NCBI RefSeq assembly: GCF_003945235.1
Contig: NZ_RSDW01000001.1
Location: forward strand, 450,001 to 482,000
Source: Edaphobacter aggregans
GTDB lineage: Bacteria; Acidobacteriota; Terriglobia; Terriglobales; Acidobacteriaceae
DNA: 32,000 nt
Direction of reading: 5' to 3'
The position numbers were made by a program, and so were the translations under genes. Shown here piece after piece: positions 1 through 5,178 of the stretch. Positions within the stretch are counted from its first letter, which is position 1, and each line of letters begins with the position of its first letter. A model generated the notes under the pieces. It ran no database searches and was not told where the DNA came from. It saw nothing but the letters and a program-made list of their open reading frames with translations.

Positions 1-1418
1 CCCTCTACCACCGCACCGCCTTCGCCGGAGCCACCACCGGCCAGCAGCTTCTCTACGCCCTCGACGAGCAGGTCCGCCGCTTCGAAGCCGAAGGCAAAGT
101 CACCAAGTACGAAGGCTGGGAGTTCCTATCCGCCGTCCTCGACTCCAAGGGAGTCTGCCGCGGCATCTGCGCCATGGACCTCCGCACCATGGAGACCCGC
201 ACCTTCCCCGCCGACGCCATCATCGTCTGCACCGGCGGCAACGGAGCCATCTTCGGCAAATCCACCAACTCCGTCGTCTGCACCGGCTCCGCCCAGTCCG
301 CCCTCTACCAACAGGGCGCCTTCTACGCCAACGGCGAGTTCATCCAGGTCCACCCCACCGCAATCCCCGGCGAAGACAAGCTCCGTCTCATGTCCGAATC
401 GGCCCGCGGCGAAGGCGGCCGCGTCTGGGTCCCCAAGGACAAGAACGACAAGCGCGTCGCCAAATCCATCCCCGAAGGCGAGCGCTGGTACTTCCTCGAA
501 GAGTGGTACCCCAAGTACGGCAACCTCGTCCCCCGCGACGTCGCCACCCGAGCCATCTTCAAAGTCGTCTACGAACATGGCATGGGCATCGACGGCCAGC
601 CCATGGTATACCTCGACCTAACCCACATCGATCGAGCAACTTTGGACCGAAAACTTGAAGGCATTCTCGAAATCTACGAGAAGTTCGTAGGCGACGACCC
701 CCGCGAAGTCCCCATGAAGATCTTCCCTGGCATGCACTACACCATGGGCGGCCTCTGGGTAGACTTCAACCAGCAGACCAACATCCCCGGCGTCTACGCC
801 GCAGGCGAGGCCGACTACTCCATCCACGGAGCCAACCGCCTCGGCGCCAACTCCCTCCTCTCCTGCATCTACGGAGGCTTCGTAGCCGGCCCGCAAGCCA
901 TGGCCTACGCCAAATCCCTCCCCGCACAGGAAGGCGACGGAGGACACGCCGCCGAGCTCCAGCGCCAGAAGGAGTTCAACCAGCTCCTCCTCAACAACCC
1001 CGGCACCGAAAACCCCTTCAAGATCTGGCGCGAGCTCGGCGAAACCATGACCAAGCACGCCACCATCATCCGCTACAACGCAGGCCTCGACGAAGCCGAC
1101 GCCAAGATCGTCGAACTCCTAGCCCGCTACCGCAACGTCAACCTCTCCGACAAGAGCCAGTGGGCCAACACCAGCTTCGCCTTCACCCGCCAGCTCTGGA
1201 ACATGCTCCAGCTAGGCCGCGTCATCGTCCAGGGCGCACGCCTCCGCGACGAATCCCGCGGAGCCCACTACAAACCCGACTTCCCCGAACGCAACGACGA
1301 AAAGTTCCTCAAGACCACCAAGGTCAGCTTCAAAAACGACGCCCCCGCCTTCGAGTTCGAAGAGGTAGATATCCAGTACATCAAACCGCGCCCACGCCGC
1401 TACGACGCCACGGCCTAG
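1..1418 (+). CDS. sdhA: Succinate dehydrogenase/fumarate reductase flavoprotein subunit, 5'-truncated by the window edge (codon phase starts at nt 3)
   Basis: The frame is open from the window edge to TAG at 1416-1418. The translation carries SdhA/FrdA hallmarks: FIQVHPTAIPG, MSESARGEGGR, HYTMGGLWVD, GEADYSIHGANRLGANSLL, ESRGAHYKPDFPERND. Codons are strongly C-ending. Confidence 0.95.
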   Translation, partial: LYHRTAFAGATTGQQLLYALDEQVRRFEAEGKVTKYEGWEFLSAVLDSKGVCRGICAMDLRTMETRTFPADAIIVCTGGNGAIFGKSTNSVVCTGSAQSALYQQGAFYANGEFIQVHPTAIPGEDKLRLMSESARGEGGRVWVPKDKNDKRVAKSIPEGERWYFLEEWYPKYGNLVPRDVATRAIFKVVYEHGMGIDGQPMVYLDLTHIDRATLDRKLEGILEIYEKFVGDDPREVPMKIFPGMHYTMGGLWVDFNQQTNIPGVYAAGEADYSIHGANRLGANSLLSCIYGGFVAGPQAMAYAKSLPAQEGDGGHAAELQRQKEFNQLLLNNPGTENPFKIWRELGETMTKHATIIRYNAGLDEADAKIVELLARYRNVNLSDKSQWANTSFAFTRQLWNMLQLGRVIVQGARLRDESRGAHYKPDFPERNDEKFLKTTKVSFKNDAPAFEFEEVDIQYIKPRPRRYDATA

Positions 1419-1446
1419 CTTTATCTTTTGTTGTCGCCTTTTGTTT

Positions 1447-1614
1447 TTCTTGTTTGTCATCCCGTAGGGATCTGCTGTTGCACTTGCTTTTCTTGTTTGT
1501 CATCCTTCGCGAAGCGGAGGATCTGCTTCTAGCCTTTGCTTGTTTTTATCTTTTGCACCTGCTTCGCCTTTGCCGTCATTCTGAGCGCGTCTTTCGAGCG
1601 CGAAGAACCCCGAG
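1447..1614. repeat. Three short hairpin-type interspersed repeat units in the sdhA-sdhB spacer
   Basis: 'ttcttgtttgtcatcc' occurs twice (1447 and 1490), each followed by a small hairpin: ATCCC-gta-GGGAT, and ATCCTTCGC-gaa-GCGGAGGAT. A third related unit, 'gccgtcattctgagcgcg...cgagcgcgaagaa', lies at 1568-1614. Spurious ORFs across them read ...VILREAEDLLL.../...CRHSERVFRAR..., a pattern I recall from Acidobacteria intergenic repeats. Confidence 0.6.
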
Positions 1615-1700
1615 AGAGCTCCGAGCGCCACAACAGCTCGAACCTTTCTCCCCCAAATTTCGCTTTAGCTTTTGCTGTAAATTATCGAGGGCAACCAACA

Positions 1701-1745
1701 ATGCCAAGCACCATCAACCCGCACCGCTACGACGCAACTGCATAA
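1701..1745 (+). other. Chimeric 14-codon relic ORF (MPSTINPHRYDATA*): sdhB 5' end joined to a diverged copy of the sdhA 3' end
   Basis: 1701-1717 (atgccaagcaccatcaa) is identical to the sdhB start at 1993-2009. The next 28 nt (cccgcaccgctacgacgcaactgcataa) parallel the sdhA tail at 1385-1418 (...ccgcgcccacgccgctacgacgccacggcctag). The join falls at the shared hexamer ATCAA(A). Confidence 0.6.
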
Positions 1746-1749
1746 GGAT

Positions 1750-1992
1750 ATGAAACCCGTTCTTCAAGCTAATGAAGTTGCGAACTTGATCGAGCGCTTT
1801 TTGGATGGCCATTCATCCTACCCGCAGGAATGGAACGATTTTGTCGAAGCAGGTCGAGTCGAGAATCACCTCAAAATGATTCAGAAAAAGTGTTATGAGT
1901 TGGACCCATTAGTGAATCGGCCAGGAAATATGGACGTTGAAGCAGTTACCGAACTGCGAACGATTGTCTCAACGTTACGAGGAGCACAACCA
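1750..1992 (+). CDS. Hypothetical 81-codon low-GC ORF with no stop codon, reading in frame into sdhB
   Basis: ATG at 1750 lies 4 nt after the relic ORF stop. Composition is visibly AT-richer than the flanks and codons are not C-ending. The frame stays open into ATG 1993. The translation is MKPVLQANEVANLIERFLDGHSSYPQEWNDFVEAG.... The AAGGA motif is only 1 nt from the ATG, which is poor spacing. Confidence 0.35.
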
Positions 1993-2754
1993 ATGCCAAG
2001 CACCATCAAAGTCGAGATCAAGCGTCAACCCAACCCCGACGCCCCCGCAACCACCGAGAAGTTCGAGGTCCCCTACCGCCCGGGCATGAACATCACCTCG
2101 CTCCTCGGCGAGATCGCGCTCAACCCCGTCGACGTCGCCGGCAAGCCCACCACGCCCATCACCTACGACTCCAACTGCCTCGAGGAGATCTGCGGCTCCT
2201 GCGCCATGCTCATCAACGGCAAAGCCGCCATGGCCTGCTCCGCGCTCGTCGACAAGCTCACCGGCCCCAACAAAGACCAGACCATCACCCTCGCGCCCCT
2301 CAGCAAGTTCCCCGTAGTCCGCGACCTCGCCGTCGACCGCTCCGTCCTCTTCGAAAACCTCAAAAAGGTCAAAGCCTGGGTCCCCATCGACGGCTCCTAC
2401 GACCTCGGCCCCGGCCCCCGCCAGGCCCCCCAGATTCAAGAGCAGCGCTACCCCCTCTCCAATTGCATCAGCTGCACCATCTGCATGGAGGTCTGCCCCC
2501 AATTCAACGACGCCACCGGCTTCGTAGGCGCCGCCACCATCGCCCAGGCCAAGCTCTTCAACATGGACCCCAGCGGAGCCGTCCTCAAAGAAGAACGCCT
2601 CCGAGCCCTCTCCGGAGACGGCGGCATCCAGGAATGCGGCTTCGCCCAAAACTGCGTCCAGGCCTGCCCTAAGCAACTCCCCCTAACCGAAGCCATCTCC
2701 GACATGGGCCGCGACGTCTTCGTCCAACAAGTCAAAGACCTCTTCGCGAGATAG
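1993..2754 (+). CDS. sdhB: Succinate dehydrogenase/fumarate reductase iron-sulfur subunit
   Basis: GAGGAG lies 8 nt upstream of ATG 1993. The 253-aa product has Fe-S cysteine clusters (CLEEICGSCAM, CISCTICMEVCP, CGFAQNCVQACP) and the same C-ending codon style as sdhA. The track ORF 1750..2754 is the same frame with the upstream ORF fused. Confidence 0.9.
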   Translation: MPSTIKVEIKRQPNPDAPATTEKFEVPYRPGMNITSLLGEIALNPVDVAGKPTTPITYDSNCLEEICGSCAMLINGKAAMACSALVDKLTGPNKDQTITLAPLSKFPVVRDLAVDRSVLFENLKKVKAWVPIDGSYDLGPGPRQAPQIQEQRYPLSNCISCTICMEVCPQFNDATGFVGAATIAQAKLFNMDPSGAVLKEERLRALSGDGGIQECGFAQNCVQACPKQLPLTEAISDMGRDVFVQQVKDLFAR

Positions 2755-2757
2755 GCC

Positions 2758-2973
2758 ATGCTCATCCTCAAATACTGCTGGATGGCAGGATTGACGCTTG
2801 CGGTCTTTAGCAACCTTGTCTTGCTAAAGACTGGTCGAATCGGTCCATGTGCAACCAAAACCCAGTTGGCTGCTATGCTCGCGATGTATCTCTTTGGTGT
2901 ATGTGGAATTGCATCGCTTATATTATGGGCGACTCTCCGCCTACGAAAAGTCGTTGCCAATCGTTCAAATTGA
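2758..2973 (+). CDS. Hypothetical small membrane protein (71 aa, two predicted TM helices, basic tail)
   Basis: ATG lies 3 nt after the sdhB stop. Lower GC than neighbours. Two hydrophobic stretches (AGLTLAVFSNLVLL and LAAMLAMYLFGVCGIASLILWA). I recognise no homology. Confidence 0.3.
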   Translation: MLILKYCWMAGLTLAVFSNLVLLKTGRIGPCATKTQLAAMLAMYLFGVCGIASLILWATLRLRKVVANRSN

Positions 2974-2974
2974 A

Positions 2975-3064
2975 GGCCCCGAATTCATGCCGGGTGCCGG
3001 GTGCCCCATATCTCGATTTTGAGATGTGGGATATTCGCGCAAAGCGCGAACCGCTTTCTTGCCC
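2975..3064. repeat. Interspersed ~90-nt repeat, copy R0 (same family as 14152-14241 and 14371-14462)
   Basis: Shared skeleton: gggtgccc-[hairpin]-tggga(t/c)attcgc-(n)c(n)aaagcgaac-...ttcc. Here the hairpin is CCATATCTC-gatttt-GAGATGTGG (3006-3029). Spurious ORFs over it read PHLKIEIWGTRHP / GAPYLDFEMWDI. Confidence 0.65.
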
Positions 3065-3276
3065 GGCACGTCCTCTCGAACGACTCCGCTCTAACACCGG
3101 CATCCAAAATCGAACCCGGTTCAGTCGGAAAAAGTGCATCCCGCAAACCACGTTTGCCACACATTTTTCCATCAGCTATCCACAAAACACCACGCACAAA
3201 CACCTGTTTTTCCCAAAAAATCCAGGCATTCACCACCCCAAAAAATCCGGACACAAATCCATCCAAAAAACAAAAA

Positions 3277-3302
3277 GAGACCCGCCATTTTCGACGGGTC
3301 TC
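3277..3302. terminator. Probable bidirectional rho-independent terminator
   Basis: GAGACCCG-ccattttcga-CGGGTCTC (8-bp stem), preceded by AAAAA and followed by TTTCT. It lies 17 nt downstream of the minus-strand small CDS that ends at 3319. Confidence 0.6.
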
Positions 3303-3318
3303 TTTCTGCTGATTCCTC

Positions 3319-3519
3319 TTACTTCGAAAAGATCGAATTCCCCGGAGTCGTCTCGTCATTCGACTTGATCCGGTTCTCCGCCCGCTTGGCGCTCTGCATG
3401 GCGATGTGATCCATCTTCTCCTGCTTAGTCTTGCCGACCATCGTGGCATCAGCATTCTGCTCAATCGCCTCATGCGAAGGCCGTGCGCCTGTCTTGGTCG
3501 AATTCAGTCCTTGTGCCAT
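3319..3519 (-). CDS. Hypothetical small hydrophilic protein (66 aa)
   Basis: ATG at 3519 is preceded by GAGGTGA at about 6 nt. The terminator hairpin lies just downstream. Codons are G-ending, as in other minus-strand genes in this half. The translation is MAQGLNSTKTGARPSHEAIEQNADATMVGKTKQEKMDHIAMQSAKRAENR.... The longer track ORF 3319..3804 is an unlikely extension. Confidence 0.55.
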   Translation of the reverse strand: MAQGLNSTKTGARPSHEAIEQNADATMVGKTKQEKMDHIAMQSAKRAENRIKSNDETTPGNSIFSK

Positions 3520-3600: not shown

Positions 3601-4866
3601 ATGCGCGAAACCACCGCACCCAACATGACCCGATCGCCAATGTTTGCAGCCACATCCACGCTGTTCCTTCTCAGCGCATCTTTTATGCACGCCCAGGCAA
3701 CCCCAACAGGAAAGAAGCAGATGACCGACCCCGCAAAAGTCCACGCCAGCGCCATAGTCATCGACACCCACGCCGACACGCCCCAACGCTTCGTCGACGA
3801 GCACTGGAACTTCACCGACCCGCTCAACGGAGGCATGCTGAACTACGACAGCGCAAGGAAGGGCAACCTAGGCGCGCAATTCTTTTCCATCTGGGTCGAC
3901 CCCGGCCAATACCCCGCCAACGCCTCTGCTCGCCGCACACTCGAACTCATCGACGGCACGCTCGAACAAGTCCGCAAAGCACCAGACAAACTCCAGCTCT
4001 GCACCACCCCCGACCAGATCATCGCCGCACACAAAAGCGGAAAATTCGCCGTCCTGATGGGCATAGAAGGCGGCCACTCCATCGAAAACTCCCTGGGCCT
4101 CCTCCGCAATTATTACCGCCTAGGCGTCCGCTACATGACCCTCACCTGGTCAAACACCAACGACTGGGCCGACTCCTCAGGAGACATCGACGACGCCACC
4201 GTAAAACACCACAATGGCCTAACACCATTTGGCAAAGACGTCGTCCGCGAGATGAACCGCATCGGCATGATGGTCGACATTTCCCACGTCTCCGACAAAA
4301 CCTTCTGGGACGTCATCGAAACCACCAAAGTCCCCGTCATCGCCTCGCACTCCTCTGCCCGCGCCCTCACCAACGCCCAGCGCAACATGACCGACGACAT
4401 GATCCGCGCCGTCGCCAAAAACGGGGGAGTCGTCATGGTAAACTTTTTCCCCGCCTTCATCGACGAGCAGTGGCGCCAAGCCTGGAACGCGCAGAAACCC
4501 GACCGCCAGAAGGCCCAGGACGCACTAGAAGCCGAGTACAAAGCCAAGGGCCTGCCCGTCCCCTACGCCGCCTCCGACAAGATCGACCGCGAGTTCGCCG
4601 CAAAAATCGGGCGCGCACCGTTCAACTCACTGATCGACCACTTCGACCACATCATCAAGATAGCGGGCATCGATCATGTAGGCATCGGTACCGATTTCGA
4701 CGGCATCCCCGTTCCCCCCGATGGCATCGACTCCGCCGCCGACCTCCCCAAAATCACCACCGCCCTCATGGGCCGCGGCTACTCAGCAGATGACATGAAG
4801 AAACTACTCGGCGACAACCTGCTGCGCGTATTCGGCGCGGTGCAAGCTGCCGCAGAGAAGCCTTGA
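3601..4866 (+). CDS. Membrane (renal-type) dipeptidase, peptidase family M19, with signal peptide
   Basis: Motifs: VIDTHADTP, GIEGGHSIENSLGLLRNYYRLGVRYMTLTWSNTNDWADSS, MMVDISHVSDKTFWDV, PVIASHSSARAL, HVGIGTDFDG. The N-terminus MTRSPMFAATSTLFLLSASFMHAQA looks like a signal peptide. The start is ambiguous (ATG 3601, 3625 or 3640). The track start at 3406 overlaps the opposite-strand small gene and is unlikely. Confidence 0.9.
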   Translation: MRETTAPNMTRSPMFAATSTLFLLSASFMHAQATPTGKKQMTDPAKVHASAIVIDTHADTPQRFVDEHWNFTDPLNGGMLNYDSARKGNLGAQFFSIWVDPGQYPANASARRTLELIDGTLEQVRKAPDKLQLCTTPDQIIAAHKSGKFAVLMGIEGGHSIENSLGLLRNYYRLGVRYMTLTWSNTNDWADSSGDIDDATVKHHNGLTPFGKDVVREMNRIGMMVDISHVSDKTFWDVIETTKVPVIASHSSARALTNAQRNMTDDMIRAVAKNGGVVMVNFFPAFIDEQWRQAWNAQKPDRQKAQDALEAEYKAKGLPVPYAASDKIDREFAAKIGRAPFNSLIDHFDHIIKIAGIDHVGIGTDFDGIPVPPDGIDSAADLPKITTALMGRGYSADDMKKLLGDNLLRVFGAVQAAAEKP

Positions 4867-4884
4867 GCCAAACCCTGAAAGAGC

Positions 4885-5178
4885 CTACTTGCTACCGAGA
4901 ATGTCGATCTTATTGATGTGAATCGGCTCGGCGAAAAGCTCGCTGGCCTTGGCCATCAGGGCCTTGGCAATCTCTCCGTTGAGATGCGCATCGCGGCCCG
5001 CTTCATCGTTGAAGGTGTCGAACACACTGTACTTCCCGCCACCTTCATTGAGACCGTACCATGTAACGGTGCCGGGCTCCTTCTTCGCCATCTCGGCGCC
5101 TTGCTTCAAAAAAGCTTCGACCTCGGCTTCCTTCCCCGGTTTCGCCTTCAGCGGCACATAGAGCGCTAATTTCGCCAT
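4885..5178 (-). CDS. Antibiotic-biosynthesis-monooxygenase (ABM) domain protein / putative quinol monooxygenase
   Basis: The ~97-aa product has the ferredoxin-like ABM pattern (LYVPLKAKPGKEAEVEAFL...EPGTVTWYGL...FDTFNDEAGRDAHLNG). GGAGG lies 9 nt upstream of ATG 5178. The track start at 5187 abuts the SD. Confidence 0.7.
   Translation of the reverse strand: MAKLALYVPLKAKPGKEAEVEAFLKQGAEMAKKEPGTVTWYGLNEGGGKYSVFDTFNDEAGRDAHLNGEIAKALMAKASELFAEPIHINKIDILGSK

Follow-up and report, generated by a model that had tools for sequence, protein, structure and literature searches.

We examined the junction between the succinate dehydrogenase genes sdhA and sdhB in Edaphobacter aggregans, a soil acidobacterium, where the end of the first gene and the start of the second are both present twice. 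The junction lies near the beginning of the 32-kb window, the whole stretch of DNA that we analyzed (assembly GCF_003945235.1, contig NZ_RSDW01000001.1, 450,001-482,000 of the forward strand); the window opens within sdhA, and the genes and gene fragments of the junction are on the forward strand. The flavoprotein subunit gene sdhA (assigned by Pfam and NCBIfam; PRK08641, Bacillus type) ends at 1418 with a resident 3' end (1380-1418, ATC AAA CCG CGC CCA CGC CGC TAC GAC GCC ACG GCC TAG, encoding IKPRPRRYDATA and a stop) that is conserved across 78 relatives. It is followed by spacer 1 (1419-1685), an AT-skewed array of short hairpin repeats (repeats D2, D5 and D6) resembling miniature inverted-repeat elements, and then by an upstream copy of the sdhB start, now without the body of the gene, that retains the ribosome-binding site GAGGG, the start codon, the first five codons and 2 nucleotides (nt) (1686-1717). 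A relic of the sdhA 3' end, CCCGCACCGCTACGACGCAACTGCATAA, occupies 1718-1745, and a low-GC open reading frame (ORF) of 81 codons begins 4 nt past the stop codon of this relic (1750-1992). The downstream repeat copy (1978-2009) places a GGAG ribosome-binding site inside the terminal codons of this frame (R G A Q P) and continues into the working start of sdhB, the intact iron-sulfur subunit gene of 253 codons (1993-2754; NCBIfam PRK08640, 364 bits against a cut-off of 244), whose product shares 96% amino-acid identity with that of relatives.

A first-pass annotation of this DNA had claimed that the ribosome-binding region, start codon and first codons of sdhB are doubled and that the upstream copy runs into a diverged copy of the sdhA 3' end, and both claims hold on pairwise comparison. 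A repeat finder aligned 1686-1717 with 1978-2009 (repeat D1, 32 nt, 84% identity); the sdhB start ATGCCAAGCACCATCAA is identical at 1701-1717 and 1993-2009, and the identity extends to the 19 nt CAATGCCAAGCACCATCAA at 1699-1717 and 1991-2009. The same program aligned 1391-1417 with 1718-1744 (repeat D4, 27 nt, 81%), equivalent to 22 of 28 matching positions when the relic and the resident tail are anchored on their stop codons. The upstream sdhB start is fused without a break to the sdhA-tail copy, giving a chimeric mini-ORF of 14 codons (MPSTINPHRYDATA and a stop, 1701-1745) with a novel head-to-tail joint at 1717/1718. Exact 17-mers and tail matches of 22/27 have chance expectations of 2.4e-8 and 5e-7 in a 574-nt spacer, and the two pieces additionally abut, so that chance is excluded. 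The metagenome contigs L097 (Ga0070734_10002408) and L098 (Ga0209060_10000218), the former lying wholly within the latter, are 97.05% identical to positions 6-2753 of the window and have base for base the same structure. Because an independent contig that has diverged by about 3% in the flanking genes shares this structure, assembly error is likewise excluded, and the duplicated sdhA-end/sdhB-start junction is real.

To place the duplication in context, we retrieved 80 Acidobacteriaceae loci (Tunturibacter, Edaphobacter, Granulicella and metagenome-assembled genomes) by SdhB and compared the sdhA-sdhB spacer in 78 of them. This alignment, which the earlier reading had proposed, revealed an orthologous spacer without a duplication in one relative, L007, and relics of sdh gene ends in three others (L002, L020 and L070), to which we return below. 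The single spacer of L007 abuts sdhB directly and is 84.6% identical to positions 1428-1673 of spacer 1. For the upstream ribosome-binding site and start (1687-1717), the sdhB start region of L042 gives a perfect match over 31 nt (100% identity), and that of L045 reaches 97%. Based on the orthology of the L007 spacer and the identity of the L042 start, we conclude that the ancestral order was sdhA, spacer 1, sdhB. Compared with this state the window carries about 290 extra nt, made up of the tail relic, the tetranucleotide GGAT, the low-GC ORF and the second sdhB start. The two spacers resemble each other only by short chance repeats and are unrelated, as had been noted. The hairpin units of spacer 1 (window 1441-1610; for example 1441-1462 and 1484-1505) have the forms TTCTTGTTTGTCATCC...GGATCTGC and GTCATTCTGAGCG...CGAAGAACCCC, and similar units occur in many acidobacterial intergenic regions. 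More copies of these units lie at the orthologous site L007:3560-3900, indicating that their copy number changes rapidly.

What the first-pass annotation overlooked is the identity of the low-GC ORF, its missing stop codon and its in-frame fusion to sdhB. As ORF 1750-1992 lacks a stop codon and shares the reading frame of sdhB, the two make up a combined ORF of 334 codons (1750-2754). Its GC content is 0.46 and its GC content at third codon positions (GC3) 0.44, compared to GC3 values of 0.86 in sdhA and 0.87 in sdhB. We found 55 stand-alone homologues of 74-136 amino acids with 49-66% identity, and the family extends to other phyla (for example, a metagenome-assembled Urbifossiella genome). 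Every family-invariant residue is retained in the window copy, and judged by these comparisons the ORF is a real gene. The conserved core ends at L76-R77, exactly where repeat D1 starts (1978). After the conserved LR, the residues G/S-A/T-Q are also found in the homologues P0015, P0011 and P0002, with homologues ending in LRGAQR or LRSAQT, and part of the 1978-2009 stretch may be native to the gene rather than to sdhB. Searches of the ORF against Pfam and NCBIfam gave no match, nor did it match plasmids or phages; an AlphaFold model consists of four helices (pLDDT 80), for which Foldseek returned no PDB match better than E = 2.

The position of the homologues suggests a function. Members of the family sit 27-165 nt 3' of Rhs proteins, on the same strand, in L085/L087, L099, L131, L140 and L174, and 49 nt separate the homologue P0011 from the Rhs protein upstream of it, which exceeds 1568 amino acids and has a DPTGL motif followed by a C-terminal domain of about 220 amino acids. 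The Rhs proteins of L131, L140 and L174 and the toxin fragment of L099 end in one common domain, LFGTRxxGNxPLLNSNDxxRIGW...Y.FRIGG...HINLWPPSWW, which comes after a DPxGL motif. This candidate new toxin domain (L085:3409-3951, L131:763-1185, L140:2383-2925, L174:2392-2814 and L099:560-858) has no Pfam match. A motif scan located it upstream of a family member in 7 of the 58 distinct loci with enough flanking sequence and additionally in L140, amounting to at least 8 distinct loci. Such an arrangement, with homologues immediately 3' of Rhs proteins that have a C-terminal domain in common, is the usual mark of a toxin-immunity pair and makes the ORF a probable immunity gene. The domain and the family of about 80 amino acids, which we call 'QEWNDF', are a candidate pair of this kind absent from Pfam. 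The toxin-domain motif is absent throughout the 32-kb window, where the neighbors of the ORF are sdhA and sdhB; as far as this window extends, the gene is a probable orphan. Most other copies of the family are orphans too, and two of them lie within core operons.

We next consider how such a gene could be expressed. No promoter-like site was found in 1350-3200 and no terminator-like site inside the spacer, the first terminator-like hairpin being at 3034-3050; Rfam gave no match in 1300-3300. As the spacer contains neither kind of site, the immunity ORF probably shares the sdh operon transcript with sdhA and sdhB. The chimeric mini-ORF is preceded by a complete sdhB ribosome-binding site (GAGGG, 8 nt from its ATG at 1701), and its stop lies 4 nt ahead of the immunity ATG. 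An AAGGA of the immunity gene itself is only 1 nt from that ATG, too close to act as a ribosome-binding site. Translation of the mini-ORF followed by termination and reinitiation could then yield the immunity protein. The GGAG of sdhB, 9 nt ahead of its ATG, is encoded by the R-G codons of the immunity ORF, and SdhB would be translated from its own ATG via this site inside the end of the ORF, with ribosomes that do not terminate making an immunity-SdhB fusion protein.

Several comparisons bear on whether the additional sequence was copied from the resident genes or arrived from another lineage. With the stop codons aligned, the relic tail agrees with that of L033 at 26 of 28 positions, and 21 lineages surpass the resident tail in similarity to it. 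The observation in the earlier reading that the two sdhA-tail copies differ at synonymous sites was confirmed: 5 of the 6 differences between relic and resident tail in the window fall at third codon positions, as do all differences of similar relics in L002 (4/4) and L020 (2/2). The pooled value of 11/12 has a binomial p of 4.7e-5 against an expectation of one third, and a p of 0.003 under a lenient model in which the resident copy changes only synonymously and the relic decays freely; the pool comprises the window, L002 and L020, as the L070 relic carries indels that make its ungapped comparison unusable. Because the differences are nearly all at third positions, relic and resident copies appear to have diverged while both were coding, that is, in separate lineages. 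The two ribosome-binding halves of D1 differ at 5 of 13 positions compared to 0 of 19 in the adjoining part (Fisher p = 0.006), which fits allelic leaders and not a fresh copy.

An in-situ duplication would be expected to leave codon-blind divergence with the resident copy as the closest relative of the relic, and repeat units with related interiors. We found neither pattern, the hairpin array of spacer 1 and the immunity ORF being dissimilar. The extra segment has the ends expected of DNA acquired through a homologous anchor, with an sdhB start that matches the recipient exactly over 19 nt at one end and an sdhA tail at the other. Its origin in another lineage is supported by the GC3 of the ORF (0.44 vs 0.86), the proximity of the relic tail to that of L033 and the occurrence of the family in other phyla, and the donor itself was not found.

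We therefore consider it fairly probable that the scar is a tandem joining of two different sdhA-sdhB spacer alleles by an out-of-register illegitimate crossover. Allele 1, of the L007 type, would have consisted of an sdhA tail, the hairpin-repeat spacer, and the ribosome-binding site and start of sdhB. Allele 2, from another lineage, would have consisted of an sdhA tail, 4 nt, the promoterless immunity gene and sdhB; it is predicted to carry the tail GCAACTGCATAA, then an ORF of the form ATGAAACC...QEWNDF, and the sdhB leader CGAGGAGCACAACCAATG. The sdhB start of allele 1 would have been fused with the allele 2 sdhA tail within or close to a shared ATCAA, with one crossover in homologous sdh sequence and the other at the microhomology, so that both spacers were kept and the chimera at 1701-1745 marks the novel joint. 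Later, the whole spacer would have been swapped among diverged strains through homologous recombination in the flanking sdhA and sdhB. The first-pass annotation had offered two origins, one in which the intergenic segment was duplicated in tandem and one in which recombination involved a foreign sdhA-sdhB junction. A plain tandem duplication is disfavored by the evidence above, and a foreign junction or a tandem hybrid of two alleles is favored; the two-allele model is the simplest account that unites both options, with a tandem junction whose units come from different alleles. That annotation had also put the join on ATCAA, with a relic shortened by 6 nt. This placement is possible and gives 5-6 nt of microhomology, and it presupposes a 6-nt deletion in the relic, within a CCGCGC repeat; an ungapped relic that starts with CCCGC at 1718 fits equally well and leaves a microhomology of 0-1 nt.

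The alternative that survives best, which we nonetheless regard as unlikely, is an in-situ tandem duplication via ATCAA in one genome, after which the second spacer was replaced by the immunity gene and the copies diverged. A tandem duplication would give precisely this order of tail, spacer and head joined to tail, spacer and head, both parental sites contain ATCAA, and in L002 the two tail copies each precede about 130 nt of related spacer. As in known microhomology-mediated tandem duplications, the downstream end of a segment is fused to its upstream end; unlike them, the 'copies' in the window are unrelated inside and their homologous parts differ like alleles from separate lineages. A duplication within one genome would further need at least two more events, including an exact replacement of 282 nt by an ORF starting 4 nt past the stop of the relic. 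It also sits poorly with the third-position bias over three lineages, which is unlike that of a decaying non-coding copy, with ribosome-binding halves that differ at 5/13 positions next to a relic head identical at 19/19, with 21 foreign tails that are closer to the relic than the resident tail is, and with the lack of a duplication in L007 despite its orthologous spacer.

Somewhat less likely again is a one-step insertion of a free fragment or small circle ('sdhA tail + immunity gene') into the sdhB start with a 19-nt target duplication. The route could have been template switching, microhomology-mediated repair or one crossover within the 19-nt CAATGCCAAGCACCATCAA. The 273-nt insert is indeed bounded by a 19-nt direct repeat without mismatches, and the last part of the immunity ORF, CGAGGAGCACAAC, is similar to the leader of sdhB, CGAGGGCAACCAAC, and could have guided a microhomology joint; with homologues ending in LRGAQR or LRSAQT, the joint sequence may be native to the gene. 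Such an insertion still requires a donor with the gene 4 nt past an sdhA stop and is hence a variant of the two-allele explanation, and 19 nt does not exceed the minimum length usual for RecA-dependent crossover, which counts against the crossover route.

Insertion of the ORF by a mobile element (a transposon, miniature inverted-repeat element or integron cassette) with target-site duplication is highly improbable. Direct repeats do surround a compositionally foreign ORF, and hairpin repeats of the miniature-element type adjoin in spacer 1. Against this, terminal inverted repeats are lacking at the ends of the insert (1718 and 1990), neither a transposase nor an integrase ORF is located within or beside it, and there is no second copy in the window and none on plasmids or phages. 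No attC-like structure or imperfect inverted repeat follows the ORF and no integrase adjoins it, the wider window not having been scanned for integrases. A duplication of 19-32 nt exceeds typical target-site duplications, and an sdhA tail at the opening of the insert is not expected element cargo. Chance similarity or an assembly artefact, for which only the general risk of chimeric metagenome assemblies speaks, can be set aside given expected matches of 2e-8 and 5e-7 and the shared structure of independently assembled contigs that differ by 3-4% in flanking genes.

Several points weigh against the joining of two alleles as we describe it. The ATCAA microhomology is valid only if a later 6-nt deletion is assumed, and the foreign origin of the 28-nt relic depends on six variable sites. 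The right-hand joint is ambiguous, as CGAGGAGCACAACC may be either the ribosome-binding site and leader of a donor sdhB or the native end of the immunity gene. Immunity function is deduced from gene neighborhood alone, and the structure model is without a PDB match. Allele 2 was not found by itself: the immunity ORF is absent from the 80 related sdh loci (tblastn), and an arrangement of sdhA, immunity gene and sdhB without the chimera occurs neither in the 80 related genomes nor in the best 80 of 211 metagenome matches, among which only L097 and L098 carried the ORF at an sdh locus, both with the structure of the window. Nor was a fusion found among 5.8 billion proteins, where an exact look-up of the 334-amino-acid sequence returned no record and a query of immunity protein plus SdhB returned no protein spanning both parts. 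Neither ORF 1750-1992 nor the 334-amino-acid fusion is in this collection at all, which also concerns L097 and L098; gene callers miss the ORF because its stop codon is absent.

The comparison with L098 points to recent exchange of the spacer. Differences between the window and this contig number 59 in 1-1367 and 24 in 2025-2754, mostly at third positions, compared to only 2 in the 657 nt of 1368-2024, where about 26 would be expected at the flanking rate (Poisson p for 2 or fewer = 1.9e-9). Constraint is an unlikely cause of this low-divergence tract because the spacer is full of repeats. From this pattern, it is likely that the whole spacer was recently passed from one lineage to the other through homologous recombination at the 3' end of sdhA and the 5' end of sdhB; selection for the immunity gene would be consistent with this. 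Such a near-identical tract could in principle also arise from strain mixing in metagenome assemblies, a further caution for the history proposed above.

The family-wide comparison tempers the description of this locus as a striking rearrangement in an essential operon. Spacer length ranges from 12 to 1920 nt in the 78 relatives, and the 574 nt of the window are not unusual; cargo is varied, and gene-end relics occur in at least three other lineages. Because the spacer is hypervariable in the family, the rearrangement is less exceptional for this operon than the first-pass annotation had stated. In L002, a 51-nt copy of the sdhA tail (3723-3775) follows a small membrane ORF, and both tail copies each lead into about 130 nt of related spacer. 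The relic in L020 (3602-3642) is an sdhB head that forms a mini-ORF, MSTEAIKVEIKRQ and a stop. L070 contains a decayed sdhA-tail relic (3301-3356) and, 4 nt later, a low-GC ORF of 177 amino acids, with the same spacing as in the window. Each of these three relics adjoins a different cargo ORF.

Horizontally acquired genes concentrate in a few intervals bounded by core genes. The sdhA-sdhB interval is such an accessory-gene hotspot: it holds different accessory genes in different lineages (acyltransferase, YfbU-like, small membrane ORFs and other low-GC ORFs) and is probably exchanged via recombination in flanking genes. It differs from other hotspots in lying inside an operon between the subunits of one complex and in its cargo, most of which consists of single small ORFs without a promoter. 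In 54 of the 78 relatives, a conserved small membrane ORF of 52-70 amino acids is located between sdhA and sdhB (for example L003:3688-3888, L045:3717-3875 and L002:3554-3723; sequences MENIQIVYIALSVIFVAVMAYMYLYTTHL... and ...HINFFYTGLAIVFLSIIAYMFFSKK); it is not found in the window or L007. Pfam contains no match to this ORF, which may encode a small subunit or an assembly factor not yet described for this succinate dehydrogenase. About 10 relatives (L033, L038, L044, L050, L052, L056, L059, L061, L069 and L078; spacers of 1041-1920 nt) instead carry an Acyltransferase_3 (PF01757) gene of 331-340 amino acids and host-like GC content at this site.

Homology-facilitated illegitimate recombination is proposed to generate the orphan immunity arrays of type VI secretion clusters in Vibrio cholerae and the orphan 3' modules of Rhs loci (Kirchberger et al. 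2017, PMC5361080, which cites as primary work de Vries and Wackernagel 2002, Prudhomme et al. 2002, and Meier and Wackernagel 2003). The crossover that we propose would give a product of this type. The junction in the window is similar in having a homology anchor on one side and, on our reading, an illegitimate joint on the other, in displacing and not replacing the resident sequence, in retaining truncated copies of flanking genes and in keeping an immunity gene without its toxin. It differs in that the homology arms are the ends of the housekeeping genes sdhA and sdhB, outside any toxin or type VI locus, and in that the scar is a head-to-tail chimera of two genes, known here from sequence alone. 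Orphan immunity genes and acquired clusters for interbacterial defense have been reported in Bacteroidales, Salmonella, Serratia and Vibrio (for example PMC10539506, PMC10470768, bioRxiv 10.1101/2025.05.03.651265). Like these, the window ORF is small, lacks a cognate toxin, has a foreign composition and shows signs of recent spread from strain to strain. The known orphans lie in toxin or secretion clusters, in immunity islets or on recombinase-bearing mobile elements, whereas the window ORF, with its putative function, lies between subunit genes of a core respiratory enzyme, promoterless, stopless and in frame with sdhB. What the present analysis adds is thus a probable orphan Rhs immunity gene in a core respiratory operon, recurring scars at the same site and evidence of recent spread.

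More tentatively, and with a good deal of doubt, we propose that subunit-gene junctions in constitutive operons of Acidobacteriaceae may act as recombinase-free platforms for cassette exchange. Small promoterless genes, Rhs immunity genes among them, would travel from lineage to lineage with short pieces of core genes as portable homology arms, out-of-register crossovers would stack alleles into arrays and produce head/tail chimeras, mini-ORFs or in-frame fusions would express the captured gene, and selection for immunity would drive gene-specific sweeps of the spacer through different strains. Examples may include sdhA|sdhB and, for the same immunity family, gcvPA|gcvPB and modB|modC, with immunity-SdhB and immunity-ModC as the fusions. 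If this is true, a defense gene that has neither a promoter nor its own mobile element can be captured inside a constitutive core operon, expressed there and spread, with the conserved ends of neighboring genes serving as recombination arms. The immunity-array model developed for toxin loci would then extend to housekeeping operons, in a poorly studied soil phylum. For annotation, the consequence would be that a stopless ORF of this kind escapes gene callers.

The two family members within other core operons are arranged as follows. On an acidobacterial contig, a member lies between gcvPA and gcvPB (L092:4653-5246), 3 nt after an unannotated 114-amino-acid ORF that begins at the gcvPA stop codon, and another ORF of 143 amino acids is located between gcvT and gcvH; gene-end relics were sought at the gcvPA|gcvPB insertion and none were found. 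Between modB and modC (L107:1083-1826 and L108:287-1654), a member is stopless and continues in frame into the ModC ATPase, whose gene has no ATG, GTG or TTG at the expected start, making this a second independent in-frame fusion to a downstream core gene.

A second variable spot is found immediately after sdhB. In the window, a low-GC (GC3 0.47) membrane ORF of 71 codons (2758-2973) begins 3 nt past the sdhB stop. In L098 it is replaced by about 950 nt (4026-4935) with a different membrane ORF of 69 amino acids and an ORF of 219 amino acids. The terminator-like hairpin at 3034-3050 comes next in the window.

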